A DNA stretch of 17,687 nt from UHGV virus genome UHGV-0085586. One strand, written 5' to 3'. The stretch comes from a virus. How positions within the stretch are numbered: the stretch's first letter is position 1; each line of letters begins with the position of its first letter. The notes under the pieces were generated by a model. That model made no database searches. It had not been told where the DNA came from and saw nothing but the letters and a program-made list of their open reading frames with translations. Both the position numbers and the translations under genes were made by a program. Positions 5,275 through 11,592 of the stretch are shown in pieces.

Positions 5275-6201
5275 TCAGAATGTCAATTTGTTACTGGATT
5301 TACCGAATTTGTCAGACATGGCTCCCAGGCCAGCCAGGACATCGACCTGTCGCTGTCGCCCACCTCCGTGAGCGGCTGGCTGTTGCCAGTAATCTTCGAA
5401 GTGACGATCGGGTCCAAAGAACGTCGCAGCCTGCTTCACGAACTGTGTGCCGGTATTTCCTGTAGCACGTACCCAGGCGGCATACCGCTTCACGCCATCA
5501 AGCATGGTCTCCGGTTTTATTCCCTCCCTGATACGGGCTTTCCAGGCTTTGAAGGCTGCTGACTTGGAATTGCCACCAGCACGTTTGGGATATTCCTGCC
5601 AGGCCTGTTCAAATTCCGGTGAATATTCCTGTCTGGCAGAACGCGCTGGTGCAGACGCGTCAGCGGATGCGCCAATATCTTGCGGTTCATGTTTTGAATT
5701 TACTGGTGGTTCATGTTTTAAACCTTGTGGATCTGGAGTCAGATTCTGAAGGGTCAAACGCGTATTTTTGCCAGAATCTGAAGGGTCAAACACGCCTGAA
5801 CATACAGATTCTGACGGTTCAGATTTTGAAGGTTCAGAATCTGAAGGGTCACGTAATACTGAAAGTCTGCGCTGCTGTTTCAGTTCTGCAACCTTATCCC
5901 GCTCAGTTCTGGCAAGCTGCTCAAGCCGATCAGCATTCAGATGATAAAGATTGGACGTATTACGGTTACCTTTGCGGCGTGACTGACGCGTCAGCCAGCC
6001 ATCAGCCTCCAGTTCGGAGATTGCCGTTCTGACTGTACTTTCTCCCAATCCAAGCTGTCGACATATGGTTTCAACACCCGGGTAGCACACCCCGTCATCA
6101 TTCGAATAATCAGCCAGGCGCGCCATAATCATCAGTTTTGCACCTTTGACGCCATATGCTGCGCATGCATCCCAGACATTACCGAGGATCTTGCTACTCA
6201 T
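5275..6201 (-). CDS. Replication initiator (lambda O-like) with N-terminal winged-helix domain
   Basis: 308 aa; ATG at 6199-6201 (minus) preceded by GGGAGGTG. N-terminal HTH (...GVCYPGVETICRQLGLGESTVRTAISELEADGWL...). Central repetitive DPSDSEPSKSEPSES segment coincides with the DNA iterons, as for lambda O/ori. Confidence 0.8.
   Translation of the reverse strand: MSSKILGNVWDACAAYGVKGAKLMIMARLADYSNDDGVCYPGVETICRQLGLGESTVRTAISELEADGWLTRQSRRKGNRNTSNLYHLNADRLEQLARTERDKVAELKQQRRLSVLRDPSDSEPSKSEPSESVCSGVFDPSDSGKNTRLTLQNLTPDPQGLKHEPPVNSKHEPQDIGASADASAPARSARQEYSPEFEQAWQEYPKRAGGNSKSAAFKAWKARIREGIKPETMLDGVKRYAAWVRATGNTGTQFVKQAATFFGPDRHFEDYWQQPAAHGGGRQRQVDVLAGLGAMSDKFGKSSNKLTF
5684..5853. repeat. Candidate phage replication origin: five iterons plus a flanking duplicated AT-rich motif, inside the initiator gene
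   Basis: Iterons AGAWTYTGAMGGKTC at 5741-5760, 5774-5795, 5806-5820, 5821-5837 and 5836-5850; duplicated ggttcatgtttt at 5684-5695 and 5708-5719. Confidence 0.6.
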
Positions 6202-7173: not shown

Positions 7174-7470
7174 GATGGCAGCCTCCGTTGACAGTGAAAA
7201 ACTTCCACCACCGGAAACGCCAATTCCACTGGTGGTGAACTGGACGGGGTTGGCGTAACCGGCGTCAACGGAGACCGGCGCACCTTTCGGTGCCCCCGCC
7301 CAGCCCACCATAATCTGGATGTGAGCAAATGCGGACGATAAAAAAGACGCTGGCGCGTCATACATCGCCGTTGACAATTTCAGGACGCCAATCCCGGCAC
7401 CCGCTTTATAAGGTGCCTGAGCAGTGTAACGTCCCGAAATTGCAGAATCAATATGCTGGTGGCGGATCAT
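7174..7470 (-). promoter_or_regulatory. Structured leader copy A (c4-like tripartite RNA element: promoter-like site, terminator hairpin, GNRA hairpin, anti-SD, SD)
   Basis: Minus-strand TTGATT-17-TACACT (plus 7446-7451 / 7423-7428); hairpin gacgcGCCAgcgtc + U6 (plus 7340-7359); GAAA-loop hairpin (7280-7293); GUCAACGG at 7368-7377 and at the SD (7183-7192); complementary CCGUUGAC at 7262-7271. Confidence 0.6.
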
Positions 7471-7829
7471 AGGTGCACCTCCCGTTGATTACGACGGAAC
7501 GCGGAGTGACCCTGGACGGTTTCAGCCTCATGGAATGCTTCAATACAGCTCTCGTAGTACCGCATTGTGCGCAGACTTAACCCAAGCTGAAGCATCATCA
7601 GACCATCAAGGGTGATGTAATAACCACGCAGGGAGTCACCGTAGATGTGATAAGTACCCGGTATGAAATTGCGGGTAAAAAACTCGCGTGAGCAGTTCAG
7701 ATACTCGATTTTGTCAACGATGTTCTGGTGCATGCGCTTGAAATGGCAGGCAACATGCAGGGAGAAAATAACGGCCTTGCCGTTGACGACTTCGATTTTT
7801 AGGAATGGGGAAGTTAGGACAGTAGCCAT
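7467..7829 (-). CDS. Rha-family phage regulatory protein (short, antirepressor-like), copy 2
   Basis: 120 aa from internal ATG at 7827-7829 preceded by the same ACGGAGGCTGCCATC-ATG context as copy 3. Rha-like block (...GKAVIFSLHVACHFKRMHQNIVDKI...YYITLDGLMMLQLG...). Stop overlaps the leader-A ATG at 7470. Confidence 0.7.
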   Translation of the reverse strand: MATVLTSPFLKIEVVNGKAVIFSLHVACHFKRMHQNIVDKIEYLNCSREFFTRNFIPGTYHIYGDSLRGYYITLDGLMMLQLGLSLRTMRYYESCIEAFHEAETVQGHSAFRRNQREVHL

Positions 7830-8129
7830 GATGGCAGCCTCCGTATGCAATGGATAACTTCCACCACCGGAGCTGCGAAACTCATGGGTGGTGAACTGAA
7901 CAGGGTTCGCAGTACCGGCGCATACGGAAACCGGCGAGCCTTTCGGCTCCCCTGCCCAGCCCACCATAATTCTGGCGTGCGTGAGCGCGGACGATAAAAA
8001 AGACGCTGGCGCGTCATATATCGCCGTATGCAATTCCGGGCTGCGACCCCCGGCACCCGCTTTATAAGGTGCAGAGACAGTGTAACGTCCCGAAATTGCA
8101 GAATCAATATTTGGTCTTGAAATGATCAT
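7830..8129 (-). promoter_or_regulatory. Structured leader copy B (paralogous to copy A, altered pairing specificity)
   Basis: Same architecture: promoter-like TTGATT-17-TACACT (plus 8102-8107 / 8079-8084), terminator hairpin + U6 (7996-8015), GAAA hairpin (7936-7949). The three elements read GCAUACGG (8024-8031 and 7841-7848) versus CCGUAUGC (7920-7927). Confidence 0.6.
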
Positions 8130-8238: not shown

Positions 8239-8945
8239 CACCGCTGCCAACCAATAACCTGAAATAACCCCATTTTCGGGTGATACCAGCGAGTCCCTCG
8301 CGGTTCTGCTTCCTCCATAACCCGATAAAAAGCAGCCATAAACGGTTCCACAGCAACAATTGCGCGACGTGACAACAATCCGTCCGGCGTCATGAACTCA
8401 TGTGTATCTGTAGGAATTTGATAGGCGTTCACCAGATTGCGGCATTTATCATCTGACAAACCGGTTTTTGCTTTCAGTTGGCGATATCCGGCATAGCCCT
8501 CACGAATAGTGCCCTTTTTAATTTGCTCGACTGTTTCAGCAACGTGGCTGACTTTTTCTTCCACCTGAGTGATCCGTTTCTGTTGGCGAACGGCTTCAAG
8601 AGCCATCGCGGCAACCATTTCGATTTCGCTCATTGGCTTACGGATCTGTTCTTCCAGTTCGCGCCAGCGATCTACCAGGCGAGCTGTGAATTCAGGACAG
8701 AGCTGTGCGACGACAATGATGCTGTCGCGCTTACCTTGTTCACCTTCGAATACATACGCGCTAGAAAATCGGCGAGGCCCAAGTGATTGTTTATTCTCAA
8801 TTTCCACAGTCTGTGGAAATTGGATGATTCCCTTTTTAGCCAGTGTTTCAATAGTTCTCTTAACACTATCTGGTCGGCTTCCCACCAGCTCTGCGATCTC
8901 AACGCTGGTCATGGATGCTTTGCCGTTAAAAATTGCGGTGTTCAT
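8238..8945 (-). CDS. Phage regulatory protein, Rha/antirepressor family with C-terminal extension, copy 1
   Basis: 235 aa; ATG at 8943-8945 (minus), 7 nt after AGGAGA. N-terminal MTSVEIAELVGSRPDSVKRTIETL... and ...VVAQLCPEFTARLVDRWRELEEQ resemble phage antirepressor DNA-binding domains. Confidence 0.75.
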   Translation of the reverse strand: MNTAIFNGKASMTSVEIAELVGSRPDSVKRTIETLAKKGIIQFPQTVEIENKQSLGPRRFSSAYVFEGEQGKRDSIIVVAQLCPEFTARLVDRWRELEEQIRKPMSEIEMVAAMALEAVRQQKRITQVEEKVSHVAETVEQIKKGTIREGYAGYRQLKAKTGLSDDKCRNLVNAYQIPTDTHEFMTPDGLLSRRAIVAVEPFMAAFYRVMEEAEPRGTRWYHPKMGLFQVIGWQR

Positions 8946-9169
8946 TGTTGGTCTCCTGTGGGCTTGTCATCTTCTGTATTCGCTAGACTTGGGTGTGTAT
9001 ATGGAATGCTCGGATCCAGATGACAAAGAATGGCAACATCCTCCGGAACACCTCGCGTTTTCCACTTTCCAACACCTTGACTGCCACGAGGCCTTCCTTT
9101 CTTTGGGAACCTGCGACCAATAGCGGCATTGGTTTTAAATTGAATTTTTAATATTTCATAAAGGGTCAT
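8942..9169 (-). CDS. Small first gene of the early-right operon (Cro position; function unverified)
   Basis: 75 aa; ATG at 9167-9169 (minus); stop overlaps the Rha copy 1 start (ATGA). Basic, partly low-complexity; no clear helix-turn-helix, so the Cro call is positional only. Confidence 0.4.
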   Translation of the reverse strand: MTLYEILKIQFKTNAAIGRRFPKKGRPRGSQGVGKWKTRGVPEDVAILCHLDPSIPYTHPSLANTEDDKPTGDQQ

Positions 9170-9186
9170 TCTTTAGTCTCACACCA

Positions 9187-9258
9187 GATACTTTGTTATC
9201 CAACGATGTTAACCACAGGAATCCAAAGTATCAAGAAATTCTGTTACTTTAGTATCAA
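9187..9258. promoter_or_regulatory. OR-like divergent promoter/operator region between the Cro-position gene and the repressor
   Basis: Three copies of A(A/G)GTATCA: 9187-9195 (inverted), 9226-9233, 9251-9258. Palindrome AAGTATCA-N8-TGTTACTT at 9226-9249. Minus-strand pR candidate TTGATA(9229-9234)-17-TAACAT(9206-9211). Confidence 0.45.
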
Positions 9259-9280
9259 CAACCATGAGAGGAGAAGAAAA

Positions 9281-9937
9281 ATGAAGTCTTTAGGTGAACG
9301 TCTCATCAACGCACGGCAAAAAGCTGGGTTAACACAAGATGCGTTGGCTAAAAAAGCTGGGATCACCAGAGTTGCAATCAGTAAAGCCGAGCAAGGCCTT
9401 ACAAAAAGTTTCAACGGTGACACCCTTTTTAAAGTTGCAGCTGCACTGCGGTGTTCACCGCAGTGGCTTCAGAACGGAGATGAAAAAGATAAGCATTGGG
9501 AAAATAATGTTAAGAGCTGCCCACAGAGAGACACAGCACACTCTTACCCTGTAATTAACTGGGTTCAGGCAGGATTATTCGCAACTTCTGGTGATGACTA
9601 CAACATGTATGATCAGGATAATTGGAGGCATTCTGTAAAATACGCTGGTGAGAGGGGGTTCTGGCTGGAAGTGCACGGAGACTCAATGACTTCGCCCGTA
9701 GGAATAACATTTCCTGAAGGAATGTCGATCCTTGTCAACCCAGATAAAGAAGTTTTTTCAGGGTGTTACGTCATCGCCAGAAAAAAATCCACCAATGAAG
9801 CAACATTCAAAAAATATATTTCTGACATGGGAAAGGCGTTTCTAAAGCCCCTTAATCCACAATATCCAATCATAGAAATGGACAATGATTGCGAAATAGT
9901 AGGTGTTGTGGTTGATGCCAGGTGGGATATTTTCTGA
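9281..9937 (+). CDS. cI-type prophage repressor, HTH-XRE N-domain + S24 (LexA-like) autopeptidase C-domain
   Basis: 218 aa from ATG 9281, after gagaggagaag. HTH (LTQDALAKKAGITRVAISKAEQG); Ala-Gly cleavage site (VQAGLF); Ser nucleophile in GDSM and downstream Lys (ARKKS). The track ORF starts at 9206 in the leader. Confidence 0.9.
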   Translation: MKSLGERLINARQKAGLTQDALAKKAGITRVAISKAEQGLTKSFNGDTLFKVAAALRCSPQWLQNGDEKDKHWENNVKSCPQRDTAHSYPVINWVQAGLFATSGDDYNMYDQDNWRHSVKYAGERGFWLEVHGDSMTSPVGITFPEGMSILVNPDKEVFSGCYVIARKKSTNEATFKKYISDMGKAFLKPLNPQYPIIEMDNDCEIVGVVVDARWDIF

Positions 9938-9964
9938 CCAGACACAAAACACAAAAAGAAACCA

Positions 9965-10036
9965 AAGTATCAAAAATCACTTGCCACACCTTGATACCTT
10001 AGTTACCATAAAACAAAGTTCGTAACTGAGGTATCA
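9965..10036. promoter_or_regulatory. OL-like operator/promoter region downstream of the repressor gene
   Basis: Same motif: aagtatca 9965-9972, inverted ttgatacc 9991-9998, aggtatca 10029-10036, directly upstream of the first early-left gene. Confidence 0.4.
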
Positions 10037-10040
10037 TCTC

Positions 10041-10457
10041 ATGATCAATAAAGCTACAACTCTTGACTGTCTCGAAGAACTGAAAAACCTCGGCAGCCTC
10101 ATTACACTAATAGCAAAAGCAACACCTGATGCTACGCTCTCTAGCGATATAGAGTCATGCGCAGGACTGGCATGGGATATGACAAATAGCATATCCAGAA
10201 AGCTATCGTCAGCAATGCTTTTACAGAATAAAAATTCTGCAATCAACAACCGTCTTCGCACCCAACGCGAAGCCTGCGGCTTAACAACCGCCGAACTCGC
10301 CAGGCTGCTCGATCTCGATGAAGAAATTATCATCCAGTGGGAGAGCGGAGAGTATGAACCAACTATCAGTATGCTTATCCCACTGGCAAATATTCTTGGC
10401 TGCGATCCGATGTGGCTGTTAACTGGTAAACCAACAGGTGGAGATACTTGCGCATGA
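10041..10457 (+). CDS. Two-domain protein with C-terminal HTH-XRE DNA-binding domain (138 aa)
   Basis: ATG at 10041. C-terminal region NNRLRTQREACGLTTAELARLLDLDEEIIIQWESGEYEPTISMLIPLANILGCDPMWLLTG is a canonical XRE HTH; N-terminal ~65 aa helical, unknown. First gene after the OL-like site. Confidence 0.7.
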   Translation: MINKATTLDCLEELKNLGSLITLIAKATPDATLSSDIESCAGLAWDMTNSISRKLSSAMLLQNKNSAINNRLRTQREACGLTTAELARLLDLDEEIIIQWESGEYEPTISMLIPLANILGCDPMWLLTGKPTGGDTCA

Positions 10458-10696
10458 AAAACTGTGATGCTTACCATATTTGTCTCATTGGTGAATTGCT
10501 TGATTTCATACAAAAAAGCACTGCGCGCAATAATAAAAATATAACATATGGTGATCTGGTAATAATTTCAGAGGATATAAAGAGCATCGCTCTTAAATTC
10601 AAGAGCGACGCGAGTATTGATGACGCTATTTACGCTTATCTTGCGAAAATAATTGACGGATCCAAAATCCAGCCTCTGGATGAACCTCGTCAGTGA
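10454..10696 (+). CDS. Hypothetical protein (80 aa), translationally coupled to the XRE protein
   Basis: ATG 10454-10456 overlaps the upstream stop (ATGA); the track start at 10448 is TTG. 3' end overlaps the convergent minus ORF by ~70 nt. Confidence 0.5.
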   Translation: MKNCDAYHICLIGELLDFIQKSTARNNKNITYGDLVIISEDIKSIALKFKSDASIDDAIYAYLAKIIDGSKIQPLDEPRQ

Positions 10697-10853
10697 AAAA
10701 CTCCTTTGATGAAGATAAGAACTGCTTCATAAACTTTACTTTATCTTCAGGTGAAACTACCTGACGAATTAATGCGGAGATAGCAACTTTGTGCCAAATT
10801 AATTCTTTTTTGAGTTCTGAAATCTCTTTTTCGAGTTGCTCTGCGTTAATCAT
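10626..10853 (-). CDS. Hypothetical small protein (75 aa), convergent with its own promoter and leader
   Basis: ATG 10851-10853 (minus) preceded by AUGGAGGAUAA (GGAGG 5 nt upstream). Upstream minus-strand TTGAGA-17-GATAAT (plus 10968-10973 / 10945-10950) and a leader hairpin (plus ~10888-10910) followed by CCCAUUUUCAAUU. Confidence 0.5.
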   Translation of the reverse strand: MINAEQLEKEISELKKELIWHKVAISALIRQVVSPEDKVKFMKQFLSSSKEFFTDEVHPEAGFWIRQLFSQDKRK

Positions 10854-11032
10854 TTATCCTCCATTGAGAGCTGAATTGAAAATGGGGACCAACACGCGGC
10901 TACGTGTGGTCGTGCGCCGGACACGGATAAGCATCCGGTAACTGATTATCAATCATTGCGGAAACAGTCTCAATATGAAAACACTTCTGAGACTCGCTAT
11001 ATAGCAGGACATATAAGTCAGCTGAGGAAGCC

Positions 11033-11398
11033 ATGAAAAAGTTCGAAAACATAACTGTTCTCCATGTTGATGACTTTGATTATACAAACCCGGAACTTCT
11101 CCCGGAGGTTGTAAAGGCAATAAATGTTGCCGATATAGTGATTAGAGAAAAGAGAATTGTCAAAAACAGGCTCGCATGCACTTCAGGAGCAATGACAGAA
11201 ACAACCTCACAGCAAGATAATTACGAAGGCATTTGTCTGGAGCCTGATTCATTTGCGGTAAATGTTTATCATTTATTGCATGCAACACAGGTATTACATA
11301 TGTCCAGTAATCACGAAACGAAAACACTCGGCAGCGAAATTCTGAGTTTTGCATGTGAGTATACAAAAGCTGCTGCCGAAAAAGAATTAGCGCAATAA
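11033..11398 (+). CDS. Hypothetical protein (121 aa)
   Basis: ATG 11033 after gctgaggaagcc; stop TAA 11396-11398. No motif recognised. Confidence 0.6.
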   Translation: MKKFENITVLHVDDFDYTNPELLPEVVKAINVADIVIREKRIVKNRLACTSGAMTETTSQQDNYEGICLEPDSFAVNVYHLLHATQVLHMSSNHETKTLGSEILSFACEYTKAAAEKELAQ

Positions 11399-11592
11399 CA
11401 ACAAATATGCCCTGAACGTTTATTGCGGTTTTATCGCCGGGGATTGTTACAACCTTAATCCACAGGAGGCTTTATTGTGACTTTTATAAAGAATATGGCA
11501 TCACACAAGACCGCCTGCCTTATTGCACAATACGGTGAAAATTACATGCATATTGCCTGCTTATTTCTGCGTAAAGCATACGGGAGATAATA

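Follow-up and report, generated by a model that had tools for sequence, protein, structure and literature searches.

The early-left region of UHGV virus genome UHGV-0085586 (17,687 nucleotides (nt), the whole of which is referred to here as the window) probably contains a mosaic junction, at which an antisense cassette with a conserved leader was inserted into a CI-repressed operon precisely where L10, a gene for a helix-turn-helix (HTH) protein, is coupled to its neighbour L08 in a close relative. The cassette centres on a 75-amino-acid (aa) gene on the minus strand, ORF75, and also holds an 80-aa open reading frame (ORF) on the plus strand, ORF80. The object in question is both smaller and more general than the three-gene module put forward in an initial annotation of this interval: a cassette whose leader appears to mark a hypervariable slot for small genes in enterobacterial prophages.

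The cassette at the L10–L08 junction

The case for insertion comes from L144, a contig related to the window. There, the stop codon of L10 overlaps the start of a 121-aa L08 by an ATGA, at a junction without ORF80, ORF75 or leader, and the L08 in question is 93% identical to the L08-like gene of the window (11033–11398, plus strand, 121 aa). Relative to L144, the window holds an extra 579 bp at the L10–L08 coupling point, lying between two copies of the 9-bp direct repeat CATGAAAAA that were placed by alignment to L144: the left copy (10453–10461, plus strand) contains the L10 stop and the ORF80 start, and the right copy (11032–11040, plus strand) contains the start of L08. As CATGAAAAA stands at both ends of the insertion, the ATG and first two codons of ORF80 duplicate the beginning of L08. 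The 579-bp segment encloses ORF80, ORF75, the leader and an antisense promoter, and the cassette is also missing from this junction in PhiR49_2. At the 3' end of L10 (10427–10448), several haplotypes that are otherwise 98–99% identical differ by eleven substitutions in 22 nt, a cluster that looks like a recombination boundary just 5' of the ORF80 start.

L10 itself (10041–10457, plus strand, 138 aa) combines a type-A helical N-terminal domain with a single Cro/CI-type HTH domain. Residues 72–126 match Pfam HTH_3 (PF01381; E = 2.6e-11, 43.8 bits against a cutoff of 23) and the protein matches phrog_4739, with the first ~60 residues matching no family; its PDB sequence matches are solely to the HTH domains of P22 C2 and 434 repressor, at E of about 1e-5. 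The L10 family is large in E. coli prophages, where members of 131–242 aa, named only 'helix-turn-helix domain-containing protein', pair an N-domain of type A or type B with a single HTH domain or two. P0012 (218 aa), which is encoded on L144, shares the N-domain and the exact C-terminal tail of the window L10 but has two HTH domains, so that the window L10 is to be regarded as a one-HTH deletion form. The C-terminal 47 residues of L08, in turn, align at 43% identity (E = 9e-10) with the type-B N-domain found in L10 paralogues (L004 2743–3291). By this homology L08 and the L10 paralogues, which are neighbouring genes, have a swappable helical module in common, and the relationship fits L10–L08 as the original functional pair. 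The locus can be re-annotated with L10–L08 as the ancestral coupled pair, the 75-aa gene as an insertion and the ORF80 start as a product of the junction.

ORF75 (10626–10853, minus strand; 75 aa, isoelectric point (pI) 8.0) is catalogued by the Prokaryotic Genome Annotation Pipeline (PGAP) as WP_000606214, belongs to phrog_20080 and is a cargo gene, representing one allele of the hypervariable slot. The initial annotation had credited it with its own promoter and Shine–Dalgarno (SD) sequence on the minus strand and with an overlap of the 3' end of ORF80, and all three are where they were said to be. The sigma-70 promoter TTGAGA-17-GATAAT (10945–10973, minus strand; 10 of 12 consensus matches, predicted start ~10939) ties for the best promoter match in a 3-kb scan on consensus match alone, the SD GGAGG (10862–10858, minus strand) lies 4 nt 5' of the ORF75 ATG, and the two frames overlap by 71 nt (10626–10696). 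An intrinsic terminator lies inside ORF80 (10584–10611, minus strand), consisting of a 12-bp stem with six G–C pairs followed by UCUUUAUA; its hairpin (−17.8 kcal/mol by RNAfold) and U-rich tail stand 15 nt past the ORF75 stop codon. From these predicted signals ORF75 is an autonomous antisense cassette, comprising a sigma-70 promoter, an 86-nt 5' untranslated region (UTR), the ORF and an intrinsic terminator.

ORF75 is rated a real gene on the pattern of its variation. Fourteen distinct haplotypes were compared, falling into two clades ~6% apart, and in the segment occupied by ORF75 only, 8/16 substitutions are synonymous; first codon positions are untouched and third positions take most of the changes (simulation P = 0.005). 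AlphaFold (AF2) predicts a soluble protein of three helices at a predicted local distance difference test score (pLDDT) of 81. The profile and structure-prediction searches proposed at the outset returned a generic HTH for L10, but neither a family nor a fold that would explain ORF75 or ORF80. Foldseek comparison of both models with PDB and BFVD returned no hit with E below 1, and PDB sequence searches gave no match for either protein. Homologue searches were word-indexed for both proteins and exhaustive for ORF75 only; among 5.8 billion and 1.84 billion proteins, the relatives of ORF75 were confined to close homologues in this cassette.

The leader and its interchangeable cargo

Between the predicted transcription start and the ORF75 ATG lies a conserved structured 5'UTR of 86 nt (10854–10939, minus strand). 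It opens with HP1, an invariant hairpin (CCGGAU...GUCCGG, 10938–10917, minus strand) that includes a U·G pair. The invariant linker CGCACG connects HP1 to HP2, a 9-bp stem with one bulge (10911–10887, minus strand), and in HP3 an anti-SD (10886–10881, minus strand) pairs with the SD region (10865–10860) as CUCCAU(U) with (A)AUGGAG. The window leader folds at −30.5 kcal/mol (z = −2.57 against shuffles). Covariance model R1, built from twelve E. coli leaders with the three-hairpin structure, recovered all divergent leaders at E of 1e-10 to 1e-15, with weaker matches to the ORF-less remnants of K-12, Shigella and E. albertii. In the R1-aligned leaders, an alignment fitted to the model and one that favours structure, 97.3% of cells are standard pairs, as against 24–52% with slid partners. 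Compensatory changes occur at six pairs, five in HP2 and one in helix 3; none of 500 shuffles reached the observed value on four of five whole-structure measures, and a single shuffle (1/500) reached the compensatory-pair count. E. coli leaders differ from those of Edwardsiella at five HP2 pairs, each of them compensated (GACCACACG/CGUGUUGGUC vs GAACUCCAU/AUGGAGGUUC). HP1 and the anti-SD/SD helix were also predicted by RNAalifold from a MAFFT alignment made independently. The invariant U·G pair of HP1 would be an A–C mismatch on the plus strand, and therefore fits an RNA read from the minus strand.

The leader had initially been described as attenuator-like, on the strength of a hairpin followed by a U-rich tract. 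Leader hairpins are indeed present, but an attenuator fits them less well: the tract in the window was not flagged by the terminator scan, and the anti-SD/SD pairing is conserved across genera whereas the U-run after HP2, present in common E. coli variants, is missing in Edwardsiella and Pluralibacter. Because the U-run is missing there, the conserved feature is SD sequestration, which suggests an SD-sequestering translational leader rather than a transcription attenuator. Rfam 15 gave no match on 10854–10939 at E ≤ 1 or at the gathering threshold, and a full-text search for the leader sequence among the papers covered likewise gave no match. Several known or conceivable identities were considered. 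Of the EHEC/EPEC prophage small RNAs (sRNAs) already described, HnrS, the Pas sRNAs, AgvB and AsxR lie in late regions and, among the EcOnc entries compared, EcOnc04, 06 and 22 map to Sakai lysis or tail regions. HP1 is unlikely to be a DNA operator, given half-site centres ~17 bp apart and a stem with an invariant U·G pair. A function of the leader on the plus strand, as a terminator or processing site, was rejected given the A–C mismatch already described and the lack of a T-run 3' of the hairpins.

The leader is far more widespread than the gene behind it. When 10440–11040 was compared by BLAST with 5,426 complete E. coli genomes, ~850 matched only 10853–10945, at 82–92% identity; this stretch runs from the −10 hexamer to the ORF75 ATG and has no annotated feature beneath it in these matches. 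Searched alone, the 90-nt leader occurs in 972 of the 5,426 genomes (~18%), at 1,626 places and up to four times per genome. At least 120 IMG/VR contigs carry it by a 22-nt exact-match scan, and a degenerate 28-nt pattern (23 specified bases) finds it in E. albertii, Shigella, Edwardsiella ictaluri, Edwardsiella anguillarum and Pluralibacter gergoviae. Homology ends at the ATG, beyond which stand at least ten unrelated ORF families of 30–104 aa, together with frameshifted remnants. In O157:H7, O104:H4 and other strains the match breaks off precisely where a small gene on the minus strand has its start codon, and the proteins of 69, 61 and 64 aa encoded behind these leaders are unrelated to one another and to ORF75. 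The sequence upstream is equally varied, with at least five unrelated types, each offering a −10-like hexamer (identified by eye) 6–10 nt before CCGGAU. The conserved unit therefore extends from the predicted transcription start to the ATG, and the predicted promoters upstream and the ORFs downstream of it are interchangeable.

Several of the other cargo types also end in terminators of their own. The alternative cargo proteins match only PHROGs of unknown function, with the exception of two families borderline to GhoS, and none has a PADLOC match. The 94-aa family MAKFTVRIELRD... exceeds the cutoff of Pfam GhoS (PF11080) by a borderline 0.2 bits (21.2 against 21) and has phrog_8894 in common with the 100-aa family MHSKSNRYYVHV... 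(L021, L028, L045, L030 and others); ORF75 has no GhoS match. In Edwardsiella (L131 2181–2835, L140; L132) the leader is followed by a conserved, proline-rich ORF of 30–32 aa (MRINQFGG..RPRPDGQV.YRP.P.PKP), and then by a 156-aa ORF with a long hydrophobic stretch, noted by eye, and a 288-aa protein; neither of the two larger proteins has a Pfam or PADLOC match.

The position of the slot is more constant than its contents. Some 110 of the fetched loci place it between a ydfC-like gene and dicF–dicB of Qin/dic-type prophages, where DicF, confirmed by Rfam, is encoded on the other strand ~250 nt away from the leader, and ~20 place it between L10/ORF80 and L08; in Pluralibacter it directly follows a DicA-like immunity repressor. 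The slot is antisense to the early-left operon in every prophage locus with readable context, Pluralibacter included, and the Edwardsiella copies sit beside icd, in a small element with an integrase. Remnants occupy comparable ground. The Qin prophage of K-12 retains an unannotated, ORF-less leader between ydfC and dicF, consisting of HP1 and HP2 without SD or ORF (L009 2573–2631; NC_000913.3 about 1,649,072–1,649,130, minus strand), and the O104:H4-type Stx2a phages P13374, TL-2011c and phi191 carry, between early-left genes, a partial leader of HP1 and the 5' half of HP2, which in P13374 lies antisense to the early-left genes in the gap between an ea22-like gene and ORF16 (L145 2501–2545; NC_018846.1 7271–7315). 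In a single IMG/VR locus (L098 ~5448–5537), L08 and the L10 HTH stand across the leader in inverted arrangement, with an 81-aa cargo ORF; this may be a rearrangement or an assembly artefact.

Function and competing explanations

A working model of the inserted cassette can be drawn from its layout. The leftward promoter (PL) within the left operator (OL) would drive L10, which in the cassette-less relative is translationally coupled to L08. In a lysogen, CI would silence PL and the antisense promoter would yield an mRNA of ~355 nt. HP1, at the very 5' end, would stabilise this message against 5'-end-dependent decay, in the way that 5' stem-loops such as that of ompA protect mRNA, whilst HP3 would occlude the SD and keep translation of ORF75 low or conditional. 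Upon induction, transcription from PL would converge on the cassette, produce complementary RNA and shut the cassette off. Antisense transcription would, for its part, dampen leaky read-through from PL into early-left genes further downstream, among them, in Qin-type prophages, the toxic dicF and dicB. The product of ORF75 is most likely a lysogen-expressed accessory factor, serving exclusion, defence or host modulation through protein–protein contact, an accessory role being suggested by its status as one allele of a fast-swapped slot beside the immunity region.

It is worth setting out what weighs against this model. Firstly, the pair counts come, as noted, from an alignment predisposed towards structure. 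Secondly, the anti-SD of the window has a C at a position (pair 69–103) that is U in 30 of 31 distinct leaders, so that occlusion of the SD may here be weaker or follow an alternative fold. Thirdly, approximately one fifth of the cargo ORFs are frameshifted or truncated, and selection could be acting on the leader or promoter instead of the protein. That of phiP27 is among them: its ORF75 homologue (L002 5848–6042) is frameshifted to leave 35 aa from the conserved ATG, and is annotated as L09, of 59 aa, from an internal start. Finally, GTAACTGATTATCA at 10938–10951 resembles a CI operator (GTAAC-N4-GTATCA), but with a 3-nt spacer and one mismatch, and overlaps the antisense promoter at its −10 hexamer and start site; phiP27 carries GTGACTAATTATC at the same position. 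Binding of CI at GTAACTGATTATCA could put the cassette off, not on, in a lysogen.

Broken cargo also lends some credit to an alternative that is, on balance, unlikely: that selection acts on the RNA or on antisense transcription itself, with the leader working as an sRNA or else insulating toxic downstream genes, for example dicF and dicB, from leaky read-through out of PL, and with the small ORFs largely as passengers. The leader is far more conserved than the DNA downstream of it; the copies in K-12, Shigella and E. albertii keep HP1 and HP2 with neither SD nor ORF; and the commonest E. coli variant has UCCAUUUUU after HP2, which is terminator-like by eye. IsrK, moreover, offers a precedent for a prophage leader doubling as an sRNA (PMC4825925). 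Set against these observations, the SD, the anti-SD and the position of the ATG are kept wherever an ORF follows, ORF75 evolves as coding sequence, many cargo types have terminators of their own and, as described above, the U-tract is lost from Edwardsiella and Pluralibacter.

The reading as an inserted, protein-coding cassette can itself be extended, tentatively and at long odds, to the proposal that the leader represents an unrecognised class of prophage cis-regulatory RNA, which marks a hypervariable cargo slot and keeps small effectors silent until a signal opens the anti-SD helix. Candidate signals could include infection, induction, temperature or a trans-acting RNA; the cargo would be anti-phage, anti-defence or host-modulating; and, through its antisense orientation, the slot would be tied to the lysis–lysogeny state. 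Cargo diversity of such kind has elsewhere been linked to phage–phage and phage–host conflict. Were the leader a genuine regulatory RNA, it would constitute an unannotated element in ~18% of complete E. coli genomes, with carriers including O157:H7, O104:H4 and ST131 strains, often in several copies and mostly ~250 nt from dicF–dicB. It also provides a sequence handle with which to collect the ten or more small-protein families (ten being a lower bound) that are swapped at one prophage position.

ORF80 (10454–10696, plus strand; 80 aa, pI 5.2; phrog_23054) presents a more ambiguous case. Its coupling to the HTH gene by an ATGA, noted initially, is present at 10454–10457, and because it inherited a working coupled start it is probably translated. 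AF2 gives it three helices at a pLDDT of 68, the word-indexed search found only close relatives, all inside this cassette, and it is annotated neither by PGAP nor in the phiP27 record. The idea that it represents a split second HTH domain was rejected: tandem-HTH relatives end in the L10 tail, and ORF80 has no HTH match. That ORF80 and ORF75 form a functional convergent pair, in which ORF75 acts as lysogen effector and ORF80 as an early-lytic antidote expressed from PL, with the 71-nt 3' overlap giving reciprocal antisense control, seems doubtful. The two are strictly co-inherited and of opposite charge (pI 5.2 vs 8.0), both frames are open with a synonymous excess between clades, and ORF80 is intact in phiP27 despite the frameshift in ORF75; its 80-codon frame is open in 14/14 haplotypes, an unusual finding at 37% G+C. 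However, its start is the duplicated L08 start made at the insertion junction, and its synonymous excess (7/14 substitutions in the ORF80-only segment, vs 3/14 in each of the five other frames) is not significant (simulation P = 0.10). That it contains the ORF75 terminator counts against ORF80 as a gene, as does its omission by PGAP against the pair, and the other cargo types are without a comparable overlapping partner.

The larger grouping first proposed, in which L10, ORF80 and ORF75 make up one functional exclusion, abortive-infection or toxin–antitoxin (TA) module beside the repressor, is very unlikely. Its appeal lies in the adjacency of the genes, in the coupling of the first two and the convergent overlap of the last two, and in ~20 loci that carry all three together, some with another L10 N-domain. 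The three are nevertheless not conserved as a unit in related prophages. L10 homologues exist without ORF80 or ORF75, the next gene being a different one in PhiR49_2, phi467 and Stx1 phages and L08 in L144; ~110 Qin/dic-type loci have the promoter/leader slot without L10; and the only constant companions are ORF80 and ORF75, which physically overlap. The cassette, furthermore, is an insertion into the L10–L08 coupling. The association with exclusion, abortive-infection or TA families fares no better, since scans of L10, ORF80, ORF75, L08 and ten alternative cargo proteins with Pfam, PHROG and PADLOC yielded only a generic HTH, function-unknown PHROGs and the one borderline GhoS match; beyond the generic HTH, none of the three proteins has a PADLOC, Pfam or PDB match to toxin, antitoxin or defence families.

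A type II TA pair of L10 and ORF80, as HTH antitoxin followed by a coupled small toxin, can be set aside as highly improbable: its gene order, ATGA overlap and C-terminal HTH with an extra N-terminal domain resemble those of some HigA/MqsA-type antitoxins, but the identical ATGA couples L10 to L08 in L144, L10 homologues precede unrelated genes or L08 instead of a conserved toxin partner, L10 is widespread where ORF80 is confined to one cassette, and the acidic, helical ORF80 drew no significant hit from Pfam, PADLOC or PDB sequences and none from Foldseek to a known toxin fold. Nor does either small protein resemble the small hydrophobic toxin of a type I system, with grand average of hydropathy values of −0.47 (ORF75) and −0.14 (ORF80) and each predicted as a soluble protein of three helices. 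RNA made from PL would be complementary to the cassette transcript over its whole length, and no separate antisense RNA gene was identified.

Prophage setting and known systems

The window represents an E. coli prophage of the phiP27-like lambdoid type; it shares 95% identity with phage phiP27 across 9900–11450 and is 98–99.5% identical to prophages of ~30 complete genomes. A cro-like gene (8942–9169, minus strand) and a LexA/CI-type repressor with Peptidase_S24 and HTH_3 domains (9281–9937, plus strand) diverge from a right operator (OR) region (9186–9259), in which three operator sites were found as repeats. The same motif recurs in an OL-like cluster downstream of cI (9956–10037), with GTAAC-N4-GTATCA-type sites at ~9958–9973, 9990–10007 (reversed) and 10022–10037. 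Across the 17.7-kb window the pattern G[TA][TA]AC-N3-5-GTATC matches five times, four of the five in OR or OL, against 0.4 expected from shuffles, and a looser pattern gives three sites at OR and three at OL. A PL-like sigma-70 promoter, TTGCCA-17-TACCAT (9981–10009, plus strand; 9 of 12 consensus matches), is embedded in the OL operators. Owing to this clustering and to the promoter within OL, the initial calls of an OL-like site and of L10 as first early-left gene are sound. The accompanying claim that this first gene is not N-like, but an HTH protein with an unmatched N-domain, is also upheld: L10 is acidic (pI 4.5) rather than arginine-rich, no nut site is visible by eye in the PL leader, and the ~25 nt between the predicted start and the L10 ATG leave no room for one. 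Elsewhere on the minus strand (7228–8072), in the PR operon beside Rha/antirepressor genes, lie two tandem pairs of known phage regulatory RNAs, C4 antisense RNA (RF01695; 7228–7315 and 7884–7971) and isrK (RF01394; 7340–7416 and 7996–8072), all above the Rfam gathering threshold, which suggests a duplicated control layer of the P1/P7-type C4–ant kind.

Several known systems resemble parts of this locus. The C-terminal domain of L10 is like the HTH (PF01381) of the P22 C2 and 434 repressors; unlike in those repressors, it is placed C-terminally behind a swappable helical N-domain, and L10 is the first gene of PL, under CI control and without a peptidase domain, rather than the immunity repressor. 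Among lysogen-expressed exclusion genes near the immunity region, lambda has sieB and rexAB, with sieB opposite in orientation to PL. These resemble ORF75 as accessory genes in or beside the PL operon with a promoter of their own, but there is no homology, and ORF75 is a predicted soluble helical protein of 75 aa rather than a membrane protein. Most leader slots lie in the dicBF operon of Qin-type prophages, between the ydfC-like gene and dicF, the K-12 operon having only the ORF-less remnant; the papers on this operon (PMC5069750, PMC10448788) make no mention of an antisense element there. IsrK of the Salmonella Gifsy-1 prophage is likewise a leader RNA in the early region of a lambdoid prophage, whose read-through form is an mRNA rendered translationally inactive by 5' structure (PMC4825925). 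The present leader differs in having no sequence or Rfam relationship to it, true isrK copies being found elsewhere in the window, and in that some genera lack the U-tract after HP2.

The closest parallel is with the 'morons' of lambdoid phages, described as extra genes that have their own promoter and terminator and are inserted between two neighbours in a close relative's gene order (Juhala, Hendrix et al. 2000, as cited in PMC4104026). The ORF75 cassette has a promoter by consensus and a terminator of its own, is missing from the L144 junction and thus sits between genes that are adjacent in a close relative. Where classic morons, as so characterised, are single insertions, this cassette occupies a recurrent slot with a conserved structured 5'UTR and at least ten alternative cargo genes. 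Nor does the slot lie in the late region or downstream of PR': it is antisense within the early-left operon.

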